Below, in pieces: positions 38,231 through 53,245 of a stretch of 64,000 nt of DNA. The translations under genes and the position numbers were made by a program. The notes under the pieces are model-generated. The model was not told where the DNA came from and did no database searches. It saw only the letters and a program-made list of their open reading frames with translations. How positions within the stretch are numbered: position 1 is the first letter of the stretch; each line of letters opens with the position of its first letter. Origin of the DNA: a virus; IMG/VR virus record IMGVR_UViG_3300023719_000001, positions 1 through 64,000 of that record. One strand, 5' to 3'.

Positions 38231-38505
38231 AATACACCACTTTCAGCAAACGCATAGTTATGCTTTGCATTCTTATCTGTCCATACGCCCCAATCCATCT
38301 TGTGATGACAATCAGAACATTCACACTCGAACTTTTCCAGTTTCGTCACACAAAACGGACAGAGATACGTGTTCTTCTCCTTCTGAAAGATAGGACTTGC
38401 TGGAATGCTCAAAGAACCTGGGTCGATGGTTACATTGATAGGAATTTTGCTGTTCATCGTGTTACCTCTTATTTGAATTAGCCTTTTATGAGATTTTCTT
38501 ATCAA
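38227..38505 (-). CDS. hypothetical zinc-ribbon protein
   Basis: 92 aa; CPFC...CECSDC. Confidence 0.35.
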   Translation of the reverse strand: MIRKSHKRLIQIRGNTMNSKIPINVTIDPGSLSIPASPIFQKEKNTYLCPFCVTKLEKFECECSDCHHKMDWGVWTDKNAKHNYAFAESGVL

Positions 38506-38911
38506 GCTTCCGCAGTTCTAACTTACTTGGAAGAAAATTTCTACAGAAGTATGCACTTCCAAACGACACTCCCTCGACAGGACTGTCTGTGTGTTCAGGG
38601 TCCATAAATCCGATTCGAGAATCAAAACACAACATCTGTACATCATTTTTAAAAATGTCAAATCGTGTTTTCCCCTGAATACTATTTGCAGGAAGCAGTA
38701 GAGCAAACGGTTTTTCAAGTTCATATGCTCTACGCAGCACATCATCCTTCTTACTAAAAGGAGGATTCGAAATCATAACATCCCAACGTTCTGGTTCATA
38801 TGTAAAGAAATCTTGCCCATTATCGATATGGCTACACTCTACTTTGTACCCAGCATTTCTAAACACCTGCACAAAAGCAGACCATTCTTTATCAAACGGA
38901 CACCAAATCAC
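38486..38911 (-). CDS. N6-adenine DNA methyltransferase-like protein (Dam-like; NPPF motif), possibly 5'-truncated or split
   Basis: 141 aa from a GTG start; catalytic motif IV DVMISNPPFS; no AdoMet motif I within the ORF; a short upstream ORF in another frame ends in GTGA overlapping the start. Confidence 0.5.
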   Translation of the reverse strand: MIWCPFDKEWSAFVQVFRNAGYKVECSHIDNGQDFFTYEPERWDVMISNPPFSKKDDVLRRAYELEKPFALLLPANSIQGKTRFDIFKNDVQMLCFDSRIGFMDPEHTDSPVEGVSFGSAYFCRNFLPSKLELRKLDKKIS

Positions 38912-39028: not shown

Positions 39029-40505
39029 TTATCCTCCTTGCTTTTCTGGAAAATGCTCCTTAGTTACTGCAACGCAGAACGGTTCGATTTCAGATCCCCA
39101 GATAGCAGTACCATCACCATACGTACTTTCAAAGACAAGCGGAAAGCCACCAATCCCATCGAATAGACTGCCAAGCGTAGGATTTTCACCAATATACGGC
39201 TTCATCTTCTGGCAAATCCAGTACCACTGCGGTAACGCAATCGAATTGCCGAGAGCCTTATAACGAGCTGCGTCAGAAGTCTTGTGCTTCTTCCCATTCT
39301 CATCGATCCAGTCACCGATATCAGTCCATCCGTCAGGGAAACCCTGTAACCGTTCATCCTCCAAAGGAGTCAAGCGGCGAACAATCCATCGTAGATTCTT
39401 AGTTTCCTTCTCTGCAATCAGGTCAGTAGCGTCCTTATAATCACGAGATTTCATCGTGCTGGCGTGTTCGCTTTCCTTGTACTCACCAATGCGCTGCATT
39501 GCAAAGGCTTTCTTTTCAACGACCAGCGGCATATTATTACCGCCCGTTCCCCACTGAGCAGTACAAGTCGGACTTGTATCACCCTGCTGAGTGTATCGAG
39601 CGTCCTGACTGTGACTCTCAAATACCACCGGTGAAATCTTTTGTTTTGAATTATGTAATGATGGATTTTCTACCAAGCAAATTAGCGTCTGGTCTTGCAA
39701 CGTAGAAATCGTTGCGCTCAATTCAGTTTGAACCAGAGCGCCTTTACCTCCGCCTTCACATCCAGAACGGATTTTTAGAGTGTAGGCTGCAGGTTCTGTG
39801 CATCGAGTCGAAGTCTCTCGATGGTCTGACTCCAATACTCGTCCAATTCCTTCTCTTCCAGACCTTCTTGTTCCTTCACTTTCTGCACCACCTGTGACAG
39901 AGTTCCTGGATTCCACCATTCGATCATATCCAGCAACGCTTGCTTCAGGAGTTCGGGCAAAGGTTTTCCACGCCGGGATGCTCTCACAAGAATCCCCTGA
40001 CATGCTCGTGCGCTCAAATAGAATTTCTGAGGCACGTTGTCCTCCAAAATCCATGACAAGCGCGATTCTCTGGCGGCGCTGGGCGACTCCCCAGTATTTA
40101 GCGTCGAACAATCTCCATGCAAGAGACCATCCATTACCGGAAATCGCTCCAGATTTTTCCCACTTTCCGTTCTTTCCTGAAGGTCGAGGAATTGAAACGT
40201 CTGGCTCGACAATGCGTGCAAATCTTTCCAACACACATCTGAAGTCTTCACCTTTGCTTGAGCTGAAAGCTCCTCTGACATTTTCCCAGATTGCGAATTT
40301 TGGATATTCTCCATTAGTGGCCTCCCTCATTTCTGTAATCACACGAATCATTTCAAGGAACAATCCAGAGCGTTCACCAGCCAAACCTTCACGTTTACCG
40401 GCCTGACTCAAATCTTGGCATGGACTGCCTCCTGTGATACAGGAAACCGGTTCAATCTGCCATCCATGAAGTTGTGTAATATCTCCGTAATGCTTCAGTT
40501 TTCAT
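39029..40505 (-). CDS. DNA (cytosine-5)-methyltransferase, circularly permuted; leader ATG at 40505 is out of frame by +1 and an in-frame TGA lies between them
   Basis: hand translation gives HYGDIT (III), GGSPCQDLSQAGKREG (IV), FAIWENV (VI), QRRQRIALV (VIII), TRD SPTCTAQWGTGGNN, RRLTPLEDERLQGFPD (IX), KALGNSIALPQ (X), then C-terminal FDGIGGF (I) + SEIEPFCVAVTKEHFPE; region ~50% GC. Confidence 0.6.
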
Positions 40506-40641: not shown

Positions 40642-40718
40642 TGGTGGGACAGGAGAGATTTGAACTCCCGACCAAGCGGTTATGAGCCGCCAGCTCTGAC
40701 CAACTGAGCTACTATCCC
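40642..40718 (-). tRNA. tRNA-Met (anticodon CAT; elongator Met or Ile2-type), CCA encoded
   Basis: cloverleaf folded by hand: acceptor GGGATAG/CTGTCCC, D-arm GCTC..GAGC, anticodon loop CTCATAA, T-loop TTCAAAT. Confidence 0.8.
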
Positions 40719-40908
40719 ATAAAAACCAGTTAAACAGCTGCAACTATTCAACTGGGCACCTTCCTTATAAAACACTATTGCATCTATATCATATAGACGA
40801 GGAAGGAATAACAGCGATGCACATTTCCTATATCTCGCCCCTTTCGGGGTAGTATTTCGCACAGGCGCGGCCGGGACTGACCGCTTAAAATCCCTACCCA
40901 TACGAAAT

Positions 40909-40983
40909 TGGAGCAGCGAAAGGTAGTCGAAACCTCATCCTCAGCTTGGAAGGCTGATATACTAGCCGTTGTACGACCGCTGC
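40909..40983 (-). tRNA. tRNA-Gly (anticodon TCC), CCA encoded
   Basis: acceptor GCAGCGG/TCGCTGC, anticodon stem-loop TCAGC-CTTCCAA-GCTGA, T-loop TTCGACT. Confidence 0.7.
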
Positions 40984-41089
40984 ATGAGAACCCAGCTTAC
41001 AAAGCACTACTGCACCATCACTGGCGAGCCGGGAATAATAGTGGCAATCAAAGGAGATCAACAAACGGTACGCAACCATTCTATGACCG

Positions 41090-41171
41090 TGGTGCGGATA
41101 GTGGGCATCGAACCCACACGCTAAAGCACCAGAGCCTAAATCTGGCGTGTCTGCCATTCCACCATATCCGC
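41090..41171 (-). tRNA. tRNA-Leu (anticodon TAG), type II, CCA encoded
   Basis: acceptor GCGGATA/TATCCGC, anticodon loop TTTAGGC, long variable arm, T-arm GTGGG-TTCGATG-CCCAC. Confidence 0.8.
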
Positions 41172-41176
41172 ATAAA

Positions 41177-41247
41177 TTGCGCCAACAGGGGTCGAACCTG
41201 TGATGGAGGAGTCAAAGTCCTCTGCCTTACCGCTTGGCGATGGCGCA
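41177..41247 (-). tRNA. tRNA-Gln (anticodon TTG), no encoded CCA
   Basis: U1-A72 acceptor TGCGCCA/TGGCGCA, anticodon loop CTTTGAC, T-arm ACAGG-TTCGACC-CCTGT. Confidence 0.75.
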
Positions 41248-41314
41248 TCATGTACCCAGCTTACTGGAGAATAATCCTACTGCCTTACTATTAAGGAGCT
41301 GGGAATAATAGGAA

Positions 41315-41390
41315 TTGGTCCGAGTGACAGGTCATGATCCTGCGGCCTCATGCTCCCAAAGCACGCGCTCTTCCAACTGAGCTACACCCG
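41315..41390 (-). tRNA. tRNA-Pro (anticodon TGG), CCA encoded; atypical T-loop
   Basis: acceptor CCGGGTG/CACTCGG, D-arm GCTC-AGTTGGAA-GAGC, anticodon loop TTTGGGA; T-loop ATCATGA is unusual. Confidence 0.6.
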
Positions 41391-41397
41391 GATATCA

Positions 41398-41480
41398 GTG
41401 CTACCAGCGGGGGTCGAACCCGCACGTCTTTCGACATCGGTTTTTAAGACCGAAGCGTACTGCCTATTTCGCCATGGTAG
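41398..41480 (-). tRNA. tRNA-Leu (anticodon TAA), type II, no encoded CCA
   Basis: acceptor GCTACCA/TGGTAGC, anticodon stem-loop TCGGT-CTTAAAA-ACCGA, long variable arm, T-arm GCGGG-TTCGACC-CCCGC. Confidence 0.8.
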
Positions 41481-41562
41481 CATATAAAAGCTGTCTGTCC
41501 AGCAGTCAATCGTCTTTCCGATTTGCCAGTTGAGTTTGCCATCCGCTCATCTACACATGAGC

Positions 41563-41646
41563 TGGTAGGGATAGAGGGATTCGGACCCTCACGTCTCTCG
41601 ACACTGGGACTTGAAACCAGCGTGGCTGCCATTTCACCATATCCCC
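41563..41646 (-). tRNA. tRNA-Leu (anticodon CAA), type II, CCA encoded
   Basis: aligns with the Leu(TAG) copy; anticodon loop TTCAAGT, one 31-39 mismatch, G1-U72 wobble. Confidence 0.65.
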
Positions 41647-41712: not shown

Positions 41713-42381
41713 TTACTCATTACCAAGCGTATCAGCGATATCCTTGAAGTCATTCCACTTGATTTTGACAATTACTCGATTACCTCTGCGGTCTTTCAAC
41801 TCAACCTTTGGACGACCAACCAGACCTTCCATATAAATGTCATCAATCGAAACCGTAGACTTCGGATGTTGACACACAAACTTGATACCGTCTCGAATCG
41901 TCCCTGTAAACAAAATAGGAACTACTTGGATACCAAACATCTGAGCAGTCTTTTCAACCCACTCTCTACTCTGGTAGTTATCACCAATCAGGACATCGAA
42001 CAAGATGAACCACTCATCAGGTCAGTATCCATGACCACATCCTTGAATTTTGCCACCATAACCCTCTCCAAAGAGGATTACTTCTTTATCACCGTAAGTC
42101 TGTTCAAACAATTCCTCTGCTTCAGAAGTACCGAAAATTTCATTTAGTGCATTCAGCAGATTCTTTGGAAGTTCTGCACGTTCAGTTCGTCCGGCAAAGC
42201 TGACTTTATGACCGTCCCAGCAAACACGCACATTCGTGCCATCCACTTTCTCAGTAAATTCCCACTCATTATTTTGTAGGAACTCAATGGTTTCATTACG
42301 AAAATCACCGATAATCAGCTTTTTAGTGCCTTCGATATCACGATTAAACACCGTTTCGATTTTTTCGTAGGTTTTCATCAA
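41713..42381 (-). CDS. Rnl2-like RNA ligase interrupted by a single in-frame TGA (at 42022-42024)
   Basis: motif I EKVDGTN, motif III ILFGEGYGG, then ...GHGY-TGA-PDEWFILFDVLIGD (motif IIIa), motif IV EGLVGRP, motif V IVKIKWNDF; both halves verified by hand to be in the same frame. Confidence 0.6.
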
Positions 42382-42448
42382 AAATCACCTCAAAATTCTA
42401 ACGTATTTTCGTTAATTATTTTAACGAAAATCACGATAAAATGTCTAT

Positions 42449-42832
42449 TTAATTCAACTCTTCCAGCTTCTTCATTAGCTGGTCAACGTCCATATCTTCA
42501 AGTTCCTTGTCCTTCTTCTTTGCAACGATCTTCATAATCTTATCACGTTGCGCCTTCTTCTCTGCGGCGTCCACACGTGCCTCGTACTCGGCCAGCCTGA
42601 CAGAAACGATGTATTTGACTAGCTCAATCTTATTTTCCAGTTCTGTATTTTCGGCGCTCTTAACAGCCAGCAAAGAATCTTCATCTGCGGTTTTCTTTTG
42701 ACGGTTCAGAGTCTTAAAAATCGCATCCAGTGCCTCGACGCTCAGAGCCCACAGATCTTCAACAGTCATAACACCCTTATAGTTGAAGCGATAGCGATTA
42801 CGGGTTGCAATTTCAAACAGATTCTTTTCCAT
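42449..42832 (-). CDS. hypothetical coiled-coil protein
   Basis: 127-aa ORF, Lys/Glu-rich C-terminus. Confidence 0.4.
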   Translation of the reverse strand: MEKNLFEIATRNRYRFNYKGVMTVEDLWALSVEALDAIFKTLNRQKKTADEDSLLAVKSAENTELENKIELVKYIVSVRLAEYEARVDAAEKKAQRDKIMKIVAKKKDKELEDMDVDQLMKKLEELN

Positions 42833-42846
42833 AATTATTTCTCCTT

Positions 42847-44919
42847 TCAGATAACCACTTTCAAAATTCGCTCAGTAGCTCCCTGCACCTTAACAATAAA
42901 GGAATCCTGCTTCGTTTCAGAGAATCCAACGCCGGACAGCTGATCATTTACCGACTGAACTGCCATCTGAGAACCCAGCGCCTCAAATACTCGCTTATGC
43001 TGTAGCAATTCCGCCTTCAGGAATTCGTTGTAAAATCCGTTCGGCTTTTCGGGGTTGACGCAATCCTTGAGCATGAAGAAGTAGTGACGATTGCCATTGC
43101 CGGTCTGTTCGTCCCAGTAGTTCGGAGAGTACATCGCCACAGACACAGGTACGAACTGGTTGGAACTCACACCCCAAATTTCACGGGTGCTGGTAGAACT
43201 GGGAAGCAGTTCCTTGATAGAGAATTTGCCATCCTTCAGAGTGACCTTTGCCACAGCTACATTCTGACCACCATGCAGCGGCTTATCGTAGTTAAACGAG
43301 TAGATGTTGCCATCGAATTCGATTTCAGCACGGAAACCGGTTTTGCCGCCGCGACTAGCGAAGCAGTTTACATAGAAGCTGTACTCGCCTTCCTTCATCT
43401 TTTTGATGTCAGGCCAGGTGATATTCTCGACCGCGGCCTTATAGCGAATGGGACGCATAATATCTACGTCCAGGCGGCCATCAGTACGAGGGTGCCACTT
43501 GCTGCCGAAATAGATGTGATTCTTATCGGGTTCAATGCAATGAGCATCCTCATCATTTTCATCCCACTCGCCCGGCTTATCGTTCCACTGAATAGAGAAA
43601 CGCAGCACGCCATCGACTTTGCCGCCAGCATTCTTGACGTTCTCTCGAATCTGGCTGTCAGTCATGTTACCTGTATACGCCCAACTGAATCCATTTGCCC
43701 ACTTGAACATAGACGGCGCACTCTTATCCTGCGGAGCAACCAGAGACACCATGTTCTTCGAGAACCGATTTTCCATAAACAGTTCCAGACCTGCTGCAGT
43801 AGGCAGAACTTCTTTGACGAACTTTTCAATACCAATTTCTTCTGCGCGGCCGAACTTCTTGGGGTCGGTACCCAGAGACTTTGCCATTGCCTCGAACGGA
43901 TTCGCAGCGCCAAGCACACGAGGAGCGGCATCGCGGTTGCAGAACAGAATGTTGTTGGCAGTAATATCATCCAGAGTGGCGAACCGACGACCCAGACTGT
44001 TCATATAGCCCAGCTCAGTGACGGTTTTCTGTGCATCCTCCAGCATCTTCTTAGTGAAAATTGCCTTTGGACGCTTATAGTTTGCAGGAGCAACAACCTT
44101 CTCAAAGGCAGTGACGGCAGAATCTACATCCATACCTTCGCTCAAATTGATAAGAAGGGTGCCGATAGCGGTGTTACGAATGCGAAGCTGCGCCGCCGTA
44201 GCATACGTAGGGGCAAGCCATACAAAGGCAACCTTTTCGTCAACAGACAGTTTGTCATAACCAATCTTATCGTGCTTAAACTCCTTTACAGACCGCTCAA
44301 ACTCCTTGCCGCGATACAGACTATTCTGTGCAATCAGCTCCAGAACAGTATCAACCGCATCCATAGTCAGTTCTTCCAGAGAACGCTTGAATACATTCGC
44401 CGAATCGCGCCACTGAGCCATCTTAGCAGCTACGTCATCTCCGCTGGTAATGAAACGCTGCGGAATATTAACTGCGAAATGATCCCAAGTATGTACGTCC
44501 TTATGGTTTTCGTCGTACTCGTAGTTCATCACGGTGCCGAACATATCTCCAGAACCGATCATATTGCGACTGACAAAGTACGGATTCACAATGGTACGGC
44601 TCTTCACATAGGCAGCCAGCGCATCAACAACCGGCTGATACTTGGCAGACTTTGCATCGAAATCCCAGATGGAAATCAAATTATAATTCTTATCAAACGC
44701 CACCAGTTTACCGATATTTTTCACAAAACGGCGGCAGCAGGAACAGTCATACTCACGACGCTTTCGGAACAGCTCATTCGTGCCGGCCGGGAAGCTGTCG
44801 AGATACAGATTGTACAGTTCGTCTTCGTCTGCATCGGTGATAAACAGAGGGTTTTCGCTCTTCACCATCTCGTCAAAATGCTCCTGCAGCAGAGTACGGA
44901 ATTCTTTAAAATCAGACAT
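42847..44919 (-). CDS. large hypothetical protein (690 aa; Cys cluster DCSCCRRF), GC-richer than its surroundings
   Basis: long ORF with GGAG RBS and motif M6 upstream; natural amino-acid composition, unlike the 621-aa antisense ORF. Confidence 0.55.
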   Translation of the reverse strand: MSDFKEFRTLLQEHFDEMVKSENPLFITDADEDELYNLYLDSFPAGTNELFRKRREYDCSCCRRFVKNIGKLVAFDKNYNLISIWDFDAKSAKYQPVVDALAAYVKSRTIVNPYFVSRNMIGSGDMFGTVMNYEYDENHKDVHTWDHFAVNIPQRFITSGDDVAAKMAQWRDSANVFKRSLEELTMDAVDTVLELIAQNSLYRGKEFERSVKEFKHDKIGYDKLSVDEKVAFVWLAPTYATAAQLRIRNTAIGTLLINLSEGMDVDSAVTAFEKVVAPANYKRPKAIFTKKMLEDAQKTVTELGYMNSLGRRFATLDDITANNILFCNRDAAPRVLGAANPFEAMAKSLGTDPKKFGRAEEIGIEKFVKEVLPTAAGLELFMENRFSKNMVSLVAPQDKSAPSMFKWANGFSWAYTGNMTDSQIRENVKNAGGKVDGVLRFSIQWNDKPGEWDENDEDAHCIEPDKNHIYFGSKWHPRTDGRLDVDIMRPIRYKAAVENITWPDIKKMKEGEYSFYVNCFASRGGKTGFRAEIEFDGNIYSFNYDKPLHGGQNVAVAKVTLKDGKFSIKELLPSSTSTREIWGVSSNQFVPVSVAMYSPNYWDEQTGNGNRHYFFMLKDCVNPEKPNGFYNEFLKAELLQHKRVFEALGSQMAVQSVNDQLSGVGFSETKQDSFIVKVQGATERILKVVI

Positions 44920-45005: not shown

Positions 45006-45932
45006 TTAATTTTTATGGAAATATTCGACCCAACCTTTGTATCCTTGTCTGAAGCTAATGTAGGCAACCTTGCTACACTTTCTTCCGATAATGTCTGCAA
45101 GAGGGTCTTTACCATTTCCGAAACTAAGTTCTGCAAGATTAAATTCTGGATTATTCTTACAGTAGTCGTAGACCTTCACGTATTCGCCGTTTCTGGTTAG
45201 ATGCCTTCGATCTAAAGCCTTTGAGTGATATCTTTTTTCGAGGATGTTATTCAACCGCATAAAATAGGTATGAATTGTATGCACAGACATCTTTGGGTCA
45301 CTGTCTGCACCGATACTATCCTCGGTTTTACGAATGATGTAATCACCATTCATGACATAGAATGCCCTATACCCTCCCTTATTGGGAGCGTCATACTGTT
45401 TCATTTCATAACACTGCTTAATAATATCCATCAACTTTGCATCAACACCTGTCTTATCAAGAACAGTACAAGATTCAAAATCGACATCGTTAATCGTCAG
45501 GTTAGAAACTTCTTCAGAAGTAAGGCCAATCCAGTACAGTGCAGCAATCACGTTCATACGAATCTGATATGGCTCTTCATACTTATTTAAGAAGTCAACA
45601 AACTCATCAACTGATGCAAAGTATTTATCCGCATACATATTGTCTGCGCTTACATCGCTCTCTGAAAAGTCAGCCAGATCATACATGCTTGTTTTGTTTT
45701 CGCTTTTGATGTAGCCTGTGATTATTGACTTCACATTTTTAAACGAACGACTCGAGTTCACCCAATTATATTTGGCAAACATCTTTACGAAATCATCTTT
45801 TGTGAAGTCAAACAACTCATACCCACGCTCAGCCTCGTAACCCAGAACATGGTTAAGCGTCGATACAACAAACTCACCGCTTCTATCAGAATACTTTTCA
45901 GCAAAAGCTTTGATCTTTTCTTCAGTAAGCAT
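45006..45932 (-). CDS. putative site-specific (tyrosine) recombinase-like protein, weak
   Basis: 308 aa; C-terminal HTIHTYFMRL...RR...VAYISFRQGY weakly resembles box II of the integrase family; hairpin plus T-run follows the stop. Confidence 0.3.
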   Translation of the reverse strand: MLTEEKIKAFAEKYSDRSGEFVVSTLNHVLGYEAERGYELFDFTKDDFVKMFAKYNWVNSSRSFKNVKSIITGYIKSENKTSMYDLADFSESDVSADNMYADKYFASVDEFVDFLNKYEEPYQIRMNVIAALYWIGLTSEEVSNLTINDVDFESCTVLDKTGVDAKLMDIIKQCYEMKQYDAPNKGGYRAFYVMNGDYIIRKTEDSIGADSDPKMSVHTIHTYFMRLNNILEKRYHSKALDRRHLTRNGEYVKVYDYCKNNPEFNLAELSFGNGKDPLADIIGRKCSKVAYISFRQGYKGWVEYFHKN

Positions 45933-45985: not shown

Positions 45986-46405
45986 TCAAGCAAATGCGGC
46001 AAAATTTTGAAATTCCATGGTATGTTGTACGCCGCTCAGGAATGCTGCGAGTAAAAACGGTTCATCCTTGCATCTTGCCATTGCGATCATATTCATATGA
46101 CGCTCAGACAAGACACCAAGCTTTTTGATGAACTGTCCTTTGTTAAGTGTATCAGTCTCTTCACAAAGAACGATACTATCAACCTCTAGGAAATCGCAGT
46201 CTTCTTTCGAGAGTAGAACATGAACCGGAGAACGCTTGTATATTCTGGAAGACAACGGATTCCCTTTGATTGTGGGACTGAAGAAGTTGCGCTTGTTGTT
46301 GCTTGTCACAACGAACGGTCGAATACCGCGCTGCTGATGACCTGTTGCATTGGACAAATCGACCAACCAAACCTCTCCGACCTTTGGGTCAATATTGTTG
46401 TCCAT
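45986..46405 (-). CDS. MazF/PemK-family endoribonuclease toxin
   Basis: 139 aa; VGEVWLVDLSNATGHQQRGIRPFVVTS and DTLNKGQFIKKLGVLSERHMNMIAMA match the MazF fold signature; no MazE-like ORF directly upstream. Confidence 0.7.
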   Translation of the reverse strand: MDNNIDPKVGEVWLVDLSNATGHQQRGIRPFVVTSNNKRNFFSPTIKGNPLSSRIYKRSPVHVLLSKEDCDFLEVDSIVLCEETDTLNKGQFIKKLGVLSERHMNMIAMARCKDEPFLLAAFLSGVQHTMEFQNFAAFA

Positions 46406-46496: not shown

Positions 46497-46841
46497 TTAG
46501 TGCCCGTACAACTCGGGATTCTCTGATACGAACACGCTTGTGTTATCGAATATCATCTCATACGCTTTCTCTTTATCGCCCGGTCTAAGCTCAATCCTCC
46601 TTGCTTCGTGGCATTCTTGCCGCAGCTCAATATGACTTTCGTTTCCGAAGAAGCCAATGCCTTTAACGATCCCATGTGTCTCTGTTCCAACATCGTTCAT
46701 TTTGTTACAGACCATGTGAACATCTACACCATTGCAAACAAAACAAACCCACACTCTCTTTTTTCTTATGTACTTTAAAAAGTCATCAACTCGTATGACC
46801 TTCAGAACCTTTCTCTCACGCATTAAAACACCGCCCTCCAC
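46497..46841 (-). CDS. hypothetical protein
   Basis: 114-aa ORF preceded by a strong sigma70-like promoter. Confidence 0.4.
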   Translation of the reverse strand: MEGGVLMRERKVLKVIRVDDFLKYIRKKRVWVCFVCNGVDVHMVCNKMNDVGTETHGIVKGIGFFGNESHIELRQECHEARRIELRPGDKEKAYEMIFDNTSVFVSENPELYGH

Positions 46842-51686: not shown

Positions 51687-52379
51687 TCATGCTGTTTCCA
51701 GCTCTCTTTTAACCAGCGGACGACGTTTTGTTGCGTTTTTTAGCCAATCGTTTCCACTGGGAGCTTGTCTATCCACTCTTGTATTGCGACCACAACCAGT
51801 CGGACACACCCGGCGATAATCATCGGCAGTCTTGCAACCAAGAGATTCCGCTTCATCCAGAGCTTTTCGCACATAAGCCCATGTACTACCACCTAGATCA
51901 GAACACTTTCCAATCACAGCAAGTACAAGTTCATCGCCCATGCGCTCAACATATTCTGCCAAAGCCTTCTTTCCTGCAACACCGAGCTTTCCGATGTCCT
52001 CTCGAAAGACATCCTCGATAGATTTCGTCGTTGTCGCTTCATCACTAGACGAAGACGATATCTTATCTTTTTCTTTCTCTTTTTCTTTTTCTAGCTTGCT
52101 CTTGCTTGCGTTTGCTTCGTTTTGCTTACGCTTGCTTTCACCGCCAGCTTTTCCAGAAATGCGCTTACCTTCGATGTATTCGGCATCTTTAATTAAATCT
52201 CTCTTTACAGCAGGCCACACATACCGCTCATTTCCGTTGAGTTCAGGCTCCATTCCAGACGATTTATATTTCATCATCGCCAGTACTAGACGCCCCACCT
52301 CAGCAGCACTAAGGGGCTCAAAGTAGCTCTCATAAGTATCCCAGATTTTAATATAAGTATCAGCCATAACACACCTCAA
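51687..52379 (-). CDS. DnaD-domain replication-initiation-like protein
   Basis: 230 aa; C-terminal WAYVRKALDEAESLGCKT resembles the DnaD domain; Lys/Glu/Ser-rich linker. Confidence 0.4.
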   Translation of the reverse strand: MRCVMADTYIKIWDTYESYFEPLSAAEVGRLVLAMMKYKSSGMEPELNGNERYVWPAVKRDLIKDAEYIEGKRISGKAGGESKRKQNEANASKSKLEKEKEKEKDKISSSSSDEATTTKSIEDVFREDIGKLGVAGKKALAEYVERMGDELVLAVIGKCSDLGGSTWAYVRKALDEAESLGCKTADDYRRVCPTGCGRNTRVDRQAPSGNDWLKNATKRRPLVKRELETA

Positions 52380-53245
52380 GAGTTTTCATGGCAGTCCACG
52401 CCATAATCAATCCCAGAGTAGTATTCATCATCCACTTCTTCATCCAGACCAATATAGCGAAGCGTAATTGCCTGACTACTGTGATTTAGACTATACTGCA
52501 ACCACGCAAGAGCTTTTATGTCATTTGGACGAGATGCAATAAACTGATATCCGAAAGTTTTGCGGCAGCTATGAGAACCAAGCTGGACAGGAAGATTTAG
52601 CTCCTTACCAACTTGACGCATGATTCTACCAAAAGAATCCACATCAAGCGGATCGCCCATTTCTTTTGGATTTGCATCATACTTACGGAACACATCAGAT
52701 TTACTTACGCTTGTTCCACCGTTTGTTCTCATGGAGTTCTTCCAACTGCCTTGCCGAGACGGGAAGAGCCAATCGTCATAAGACAATCCATCAATATTGA
52801 TATAAGTTTGAATACACTTTAGTGCCGGGACCGGAACTTTAAGAATGCGATACTTATTTGTTTTCTTTTCCTTAACACGAAGTTTTGCGTTGAAATTCAC
52901 CACAACCTTTCCATTCATATCTGTAGCTGCTACATCAGAAACCTTCAAACGAAGCAAATCACTTGCTCTGAATCCTGTGCAACATCCTACATTAAACAAA
53001 CACCAGTTGCGGTACTGACGTTTAATCCAGAAATATTCTGAAATACGTTTAATATCTTCTTTGTCCTTAATCGGCTGAACCGTTCCATGATTCGCTTCCA
53101 TCCGAGTCAGGTTATAATTCCTTTTGATTACTTTCTGGTGCCTTTCTTCTTTAGAAGAATCATATTCAGAAAAATCAAAAGCAACCGTATTCTCGTTTTT
53201 CTTTTCATTCTCAAGTGCGTTCATTACATTCACCTCAAATTCCAT
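52376..53245 (-). CDS. tyrosine recombinase (phage integrase family)
   Basis: 289 aa; GFRASDLLRL (box I Arg), HSCRKTFG (H-x-x-R), LNHSSQAITLRY (GHS...Y). Confidence 0.6.
   Translation of the reverse strand: MEFEVNVMNALENEKKNENTVAFDFSEYDSSKEERHQKVIKRNYNLTRMEANHGTVQPIKDKEDIKRISEYFWIKRQYRNWCLFNVGCCTGFRASDLLRLKVSDVAATDMNGKVVVNFNAKLRVKEKKTNKYRILKVPVPALKCIQTYINIDGLSYDDWLFPSRQGSWKNSMRTNGGTSVSKSDVFRKYDANPKEMGDPLDVDSFGRIMRQVGKELNLPVQLGSHSCRKTFGYQFIASRPNDIKALAWLQYSLNHSSQAITLRYIGLDEEVDDEYYSGIDYGVDCHENS

Follow-up and report, generated by a model that had tools for sequence, protein, structure and literature searches.

An in-frame TGA in a phage RNA ligase gene beside a tRNA array is very probably an ordinary recent nonsense allele

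An RNA ligase gene lying beside a tRNA array in the window (the whole stretch of 64,000 nt of viral DNA analysed here) is split by one in-frame TGA, which raises the question of whether this codon is a mutation, a regulated stop or a sense codon. An earlier note on this DNA had proposed a recent nonsense mutation, programmed readthrough or a host decoding UGA as Trp or Gly. The answer reached with high confidence is that the window ligase, whose enzyme superfamily is a known one, represents an ordinary nonsense allele of recent origin. Coordinates of the features discussed are collected in Table 1.

Translation of the minus strand from 42381 to 41713 yielded one frame, 223 codons long and open except for one internal stop, and the TGA (context ...GCGHGY*PDEWFILFDV...) was thus confirmed as the only interruption. 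The most probable start codon is the ATG at 42378, since a GAGGTG Shine-Dalgarno sequence is found 7 nt upstream; the TTG at 42381 is merely the in-frame codon preceding it. Read through the stop, the ligase displayed the covalent nucleotidyltransferase motif set including the catalytic Lys. The five motifs claimed earlier were indeed present and collinear in this frame: I (KVDGTN), III (FGEGYGG), IIIa (FDVL; FILFDV), IV (EGLVGRP) and V (KIKWNDF; VKIKW). Residues K44, D46, G47, N49, E105, G106, F127, D128, E184, G185, K205 and K207 were invariant in 31 homologues.

Table 1. Features of the ligase locus and its surroundings, with ligase lesions found in related contigs. Positions refer to the window unless a codon is given.
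Feature	Position	Strand	Remarks
PF09414 RNA-ligase gene	41713-42378	minus	221 codons + TAA stop, broken at codon 119; translation, Pfam and PHROG matches spanning the stop
Premature TGA	42022-42024	minus	CGA (Arg119) to TGA; C-to-T at 42024, gene nt 358 counted from TTG 42381
Predicted product in this strain	42025-42378	minus	118-aa N-terminal fragment, motifs I and III only; from ORF list
3' part of ligase gene	41713-42021	minus	encodes motifs IIIa, IV, V; predicted to be untranslated
TTG-initiated 96-aa ORF	41713-42003	minus	called by gene finders within 3' part of ligase
Promoter-like site TAGACA-18-TAAAAT	42418-42447	minus	upstream of ligase; consensus scan only
Seven-tRNA array	40642-41646	minus	directly downstream of ligase; ARAGORN, Rfam matches of 43-67 bits
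127-aa protein (phrog_2018) and 690-aa DUF8224/phrog_1735 protein	42449-44919	minus	upstream neighbours; profile matches
MrpR-like tyrosine recombinase gene	45006-45932	minus	adjoins PemK/MazF-type toxin gene
PemK/MazF-type toxin gene	45986-46405	minus	further upstream of ligase
C5 cytosine methylase ORF	39029-40411	minus	begins after PCQ motif; motif I (FDGIGGF) at C-terminus
141-aa methyltransferase fragment	38486-38911	minus	just downstream of methylase ORF
Integrase-family genes	259-1425, 52376-53245	minus	one with Tn916-type DNA-binding domain
L049 ligase lesion	codon 112		CAA to TAA
L050 ligase lesion	codon 170		CAA to TAA; window's haplotype
L002 ligase lesion			1-nt deletion in A run; window's haplotype
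L084-86 ligase lesion			10-bp tandem duplication of CAAGATAATG; at least three runs
L087 ligase lesion			16-nt deletion between GAGAC repeats
L088 ligase lesion			1-nt deletion
L090 ligase lesion			three 1-nt insertions

Profile comparisons agreed with this assignment. The Pfam family RNA_ligase (PF09414) matched across the stop at 59.6 bits (gathering cut-off 27; E = 5.4e-16), its positions 2-171 of 171 being aligned with residues 39-208, and phrog_548, annotated as 'RNA ligase', matched at 2.9e-23. More than 5000 homologues were retrieved by protein search, and 119 of the 120 listed were 211-226 aa long. INPHARED contained one relative, the unannotated MT835544. The GTDB species-representative genomes scanned harbored distant homologues only (at most 57% identity) and no Blautia locus.

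An AlphaFold2 model was made from P0001, an intact homologue 97% identical to the window ligase (pLDDT 83, pTM 0.80). Its best PDB match was T4 Rnl2 (Foldseek E = 1.9e-10, query TM-score 0.60, 20% identity), followed in order by Naegleria NgrRnl, trypanosome REL1, archaeal Rnl3 and T4 Rnl1. The designation Rnl2-like given in the earlier note was thus appropriate for the fold but not for the family: the ligase scored 23.4 bits with the Rnl2 equivalog TIGR02307, whose cut-off is 197.15, and it ends at residue 221, without the C-terminal domain of Rnl2 (~330 aa in total). Rnl2 chains matched by fold comprised 233-319 residues against the 221 of the query. The nucleotidyltransferase domain of T4 Rnl2 (gp24.1) shares the five motifs and the Pfam family with the window ligase, yet direct sequence similarity was marginal (E = 0.05). 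Each is the second ligase of a phage, beside an Rnl1-type enzyme (for the window ligase, in sister phages), and neither seems to be essential; T4 Rnl2 is known to be dispensable.

The same nucleotidyltransferase core is found in the nick-sealing ligases of type Rnl5 (Naegleria gruberi NgrRnl, Deinococcus DraRnl), and the fold matches to NgrRnl ranked as a group directly after those to Rnl2 (E = 4e-8 to 1e-6). Rnl5-type enzymes are ~340 aa long and carry an N-terminal OB domain. The window ligase, in contrast, has no extra domain: motif I is located at residue 44, preceded by only ~40 residues, and no OB fold was seen in the model. Judged from its motifs and the modelled fold, it is a minimal stand-alone nucleotidyltransferase-domain RNA ligase with an Rnl2-like fold, from a large uncharacterised subfamily. 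Such minimal PF09414 ligases (~215 aa) form a very large group still lacking characterisation, encountered here in a phage island with tRNA genes.

Related sequences pointed to the origin of the TGA. The window gene was identical to two intact alleles (L025 and L059) at 668 of 669 nt, the sole difference being T instead of C at nt 358. Further disruptions, which would have indicated a pseudogene, were absent, and the mutation is very young, since nothing else in the gene had changed relative to these alleles. In DNA alignments, the codon opposite the TGA was CGA in L001 and L002 and CGG in MT835544. A pattern scan of IMG/VR and metagenome contigs, with codon 119 left free, gave 28 related contigs, of which 16 displayed CGG, 12 CGA and none TGA. 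The full-length gene could be recovered from 26 of the 28 and was uninterrupted in all of them, in one case only by means of an alternative start (a 1-nt insertion near the start was rescued by a new ATG). The residue aligned to the stop in 19 homologues was mostly Arg, with a few Cys or Ser and never Trp or Gly. Hence, with CGA or CGG in every related contig examined and one C-to-T change relative to intact alleles, the first of the three proposals is the one retained: the TGA is in all likelihood an ordinary nonsense allele derived by transition from an Arg codon.

The intact parent protein was present on 42 contigs and the 118-aa fragment on three to five. Ratios of dN/dS among intact alleles were 0.04-0.26, which indicates strong purifying selection and hence that the ligase is normally maintained. 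The TGA allele is thus in the minority.

Rarity also bears on whether the allele is genuine. A sequencing, assembly or DNA-damage artefact, the real genome having CGA, would agree with the nature of the change (C-to-T is the typical deamination artefact) and with its absence from all 28 contigs of the two public collections scanned. The same base was nevertheless called in two contigs from other sequencing runs, L004 (SRR8666053) and L006 (SRR8666040), which shared 100% identity with the window along 11,174 and 1,972 nt, respectively, and on both of which the exact 118-aa protein was called. JGI/IMG and Logan moreover both had records of the N-terminal fragment (118 aa) and of the C-terminal ORF (96 aa). 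The TGA rests on consensus assemblies, and the two runs are neighbouring accessions, possibly from the window's own study or subject; with the same TGA in two such identical contigs, the allele is probably real, and an artefact is very improbable.

Two further contigs, L005 (end at 2796) and L007 (end at 1292), both stopped exactly one base before the C/T site. Their ligase 5' parts were identical to that of the window, their upstream genes were different and they originated from other samples. De Bruijn assemblers break contigs at within-sample polymorphism, and both alleles could coexist in these samples; the contig ends are weak evidence for this, as the exact 118-aa look-up itself selects such ends.

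As for the host, neighbour proteins identical to those of the window were located on contigs 431-706 kb long and were named in a Blautia sp. MAG, and the likely host is thus Blautia, a standard-code bacterium (Lachnospiraceae). The window encoded a replication and nucleotide-metabolism set comprising DnaE, RecD2, RecJ, DNA ligase, NrdD with its activase, ThyX, FolD and dUTPase. Related contigs were 100-190 kb long. From the protein identities with the Blautia MAG and the two integrases, the element is probably a large temperate phage or an integrative element whose host belongs to the Lachnospiraceae and uses the standard code.

Gut phages with recoded stop codons are known, some of them infecting Firmicutes (bioRxiv 10.1101/2021.08.26.457843), and the window resembles such phages (TGA to Trp, TAG to Gln) in its origin from an uncultured large gut phage, in its tRNA array and in its one in-frame TGA. 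Were TGA reassigned to Trp (code 4) or Gly (code 25), either genome-wide or in late genes, the ligase would be full-length. The window moreover represents 64 kb of a genome of ~100-190 kb, and a UCA suppressor tRNA or TGA-containing late genes could lie outside it. Within the window, all diagnostics of recoded gut phages failed, namely a gain in coding density, a suppressor tRNA, multiple interrupted genes and stops aligned with Trp or Gly. The aligned residue was Arg (CGA or CGG in relatives), and ARAGORN and Rfam agreed with the earlier note that none of the seven tRNAs of the 64-kb window has a UCA anticodon.

TGA behaved as a working stop throughout. In a simple non-overlapping set of 96 minus-strand ORFs, it terminated 49 (TAA 46, TAG one), and in 17 of these the stop overlapped the start of the following ORF as ATGA. 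Conserved genes ended in TGA at their expected length (RecD2, 776 aa; RecJ, 574 aa; DNA ligase, 443 aa), and so did the gene for the DUF8224 protein, in which the PHROG profile was aligned as far as its position 672 of 673, right at the stop. These three conserved genes, as well as DnaE (1114 aa) and NrdD (733 aa), were each single uninterrupted ORFs, and the earlier observation that DnaE and NrdD lack in-frame TGAs was thereby upheld. Codes 11, 4 and 15 were compared for ORFs and coding density, stops with long open frames on either side were looked for, and no recoding signal emerged. Coding density was 0.928 with code 11 and 0.924 or 0.925 when TGA or TAG, respectively, was read as sense, whereas a published screen for recoded phages requires a gain above 5-10% (bioRxiv 10.1101/2021.08.26.457843).

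Minus-strand stops with at least 60 open codons on each side comprised nine TGA against eleven TAA, i.e. no excess of TGA. Five of the eight such TGAs other than that of the ligase were situated between selected ORFs, the next ORF starting 3-20 bases beyond. Homologue comparison covered the ligase site among the nine, and the ligase TGA is the only homology-supported one in frame. Interrupted genes in recoded phages are mainly late or lysis genes, whereas the ligase is found among replication and accessory genes. Taken with the standard code of Blautia, these data make decoding of UGA as Trp or Gly extremely improbable, and the suggestion of a host with a non-standard code was abandoned. The main value of this case is negative: the in-frame TGA provides no evidence for an alternative code or for recoding in this gut phage.

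Programmed or regulatory readthrough, in which leakiness of the UGA-C stop would keep full-length ligase at a low level, was weighed against the same alignments. UGA followed by C is a weak termination context in E. coli, and C is indeed the next base here. Residue 119 is not a catalytic motif residue and is R, C or S among homologues; in the P0001 model it comes just after a loop of low confidence that separates motifs III and IIIa (residues 108-115), and Trp might be tolerated there. The stop was, however, absent from 28 of 28 related contigs and an identical haplotype exists with CGA, so that nothing appears to have evolved around it. Relatives were broken at unrelated sites and by frameshifts, as in random loss of function. 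Programmed readthrough was consequently considered very unlikely. Trace full-length ligase may possibly arise by spontaneous UGA readthrough, which would be incidental. Genome recoding and programmed readthrough were thus both rejected, given the Arg codon in relatives, the use of TGA as a working stop, the lack of density gain and the Blautia host.

Under the retained reading, a recent nonsense allele, the consequences can be outlined from motifs, fold match and genomic context. In its intact form (221 aa), the enzyme would undergo adenylylation at Lys44 of motif I and would seal 3'-OH/5'-phosphate RNA breaks, presumably as part of an accessory island for RNA repair with tRNA genes. In this strain, the single C-to-T change at Arg119 should end translation after 118 residues, as TGA is a normal stop in phage and host, and truncation would remove motifs IIIa, IV and V. 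According to the motif layout, the 118-aa product should be inactive and the allele null or near-null. The sequence upstream of the TTG of the 96-aa ORF was read by eye and displayed no convincing ribosome-binding site. Both the ligase and the tRNA array may be transcribed from a candidate promoter upstream of the gene; the number of promoter-like sites in the consensus scan was not above shuffle expectation.

The TGA was not the only lesion of this gene. At least seven other independent lesions, i.e. at least eight different ones in all, were found in the ligase of close relatives (contigs L002, L014, L049, L050 and L084-L090), three of them on one otherwise identical haplotype. Such repeated and independent knock-outs in related phages would be expected of a conditionally dispensable accessory function, and this is what the ligase looks like. 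As the lesions differ in kind and site, neither a programmed switch nor a functional split was retained; a split enzyme in particular was dismissed because the break points (at about codons 20, 38, 112, 119 and 170) define no conserved split site. Among the members listed for the main ligase cluster, three of 15 were truncated, against none of the 75 listed in five neighbour-gene clusters, an excess that is only suggestive since cluster listings are not random samples.

That the repeated knock-outs were positively selected, e.g. as an escape from host defence, instead of reflecting neutral decay, seems rather unlikely. Some Blautia hosts could possess a defence that recognises the ligase or what it produces, or the enzyme could be a burden to lysogens. 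If selection were indeed involved, the ligase would be a natural escape locus marking a phage-host conflict over RNA repair. In any case, the several independent natural null alleles offer ready-made isogenic comparisons for testing the function of the enzyme.

The adjoining array was composed, as the earlier note had described, of seven tRNA genes on the strand of the ligase, on which ARAGORN and Rfam agreed: Met-CAT, Gly-TCC, Leu-TAG, Gln-TTG, Pro-TGG, Leu-TAA and Leu-CAA. Its further proposal, a T4-type tRNA repair arrangement, was plausible for the locus but fitted the window itself less well, the latter having no adjoining end-healing enzyme. Sister phages (L001, L007, L009 and L050) displayed, directly upstream of ligase and tRNA array, a fusion of 736-743 aa (L001 3711-5924, L050 528-2759) composed of an AAA_33 kinase, a Metallophos phosphatase and RNA_lig_T4_1, which matched the bacterial Pnkp model at 1.5e-22. 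An end-healing kinase-phosphatase thus accompanies the ligase in these four, forming a heal-and-seal set-up like that of T4 tRNA repair (Pnkp plus Rnl1), and supports a role of the locus in RNA repair. In the window, this slot contained instead the genes for the DUF8224 and 127-aa proteins, followed on the upstream side of the ligase by the MrpR-like recombinase and PemK. No polynucleotide kinase was detected among the ~45 window ORFs scanned against Pfam, and a literature search yielded no paper mentioning DUF8224.

To our knowledge, no anticodon-nuclease target is known for this phage, and the tRNA array may simply supply codon usage. The ligase-tRNA island, with the fusion in sister genomes, constitutes a candidate module for RNA repair or counter-defence in Lachnospiraceae phages.

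The slot upstream of the ligase appeared as a site of cassette swaps, most strains carrying DUF8224 with the 127-aa protein and some the kinase-phosphatase-Rnl1 fusion. A link between loss of the ligase and loss of Pnkp-Rnl1 was considered and discarded: the ligase is intact in most relatives that carry DUF8224, and in L050 it is broken in spite of the presence of Pnkp-Rnl1. The sub-lineage L087-L089 displayed a 367-aa nSTAND3/AAA ATPase gene (~250-1370) directly upstream of its broken ligase. The exact PemK/MazF toxin protein was found on at least 1000 public contigs and was named in a Blautia sp. MAG. No antitoxin was identified for it; the 114-aa ORF at 46497-46841 had no family match.

TAG was nearly unused as a stop (a single one of the 96 minus-strand ORFs), and the trinucleotide occurred on the coding strand at 0.50 of expectation, its complement CTA at 0.93. 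No in-frame TAGs or density gain pointing to TAG recoding were seen within the window.

The C5 cytosine methylase ORF looks permuted or fused. A frameshift, suggested by its apparent two-frame structure, was discarded, since the 484-aa homologue from L001 (8038-9492; 79% identity) displayed the same layout and aligned in one frame. A deamination hotspot due to this methylase was likewise dropped as a source of the ligase mutation: CpG was not depleted (0.95 observed/expected) and, although the mutated C lies in a CpG, other nonsense alleles occurred at CAA codons, outside CpG. GATC was strongly depleted in the window (0.40 observed/expected) and CGCG was at 0.53, which may reflect restriction-site avoidance.
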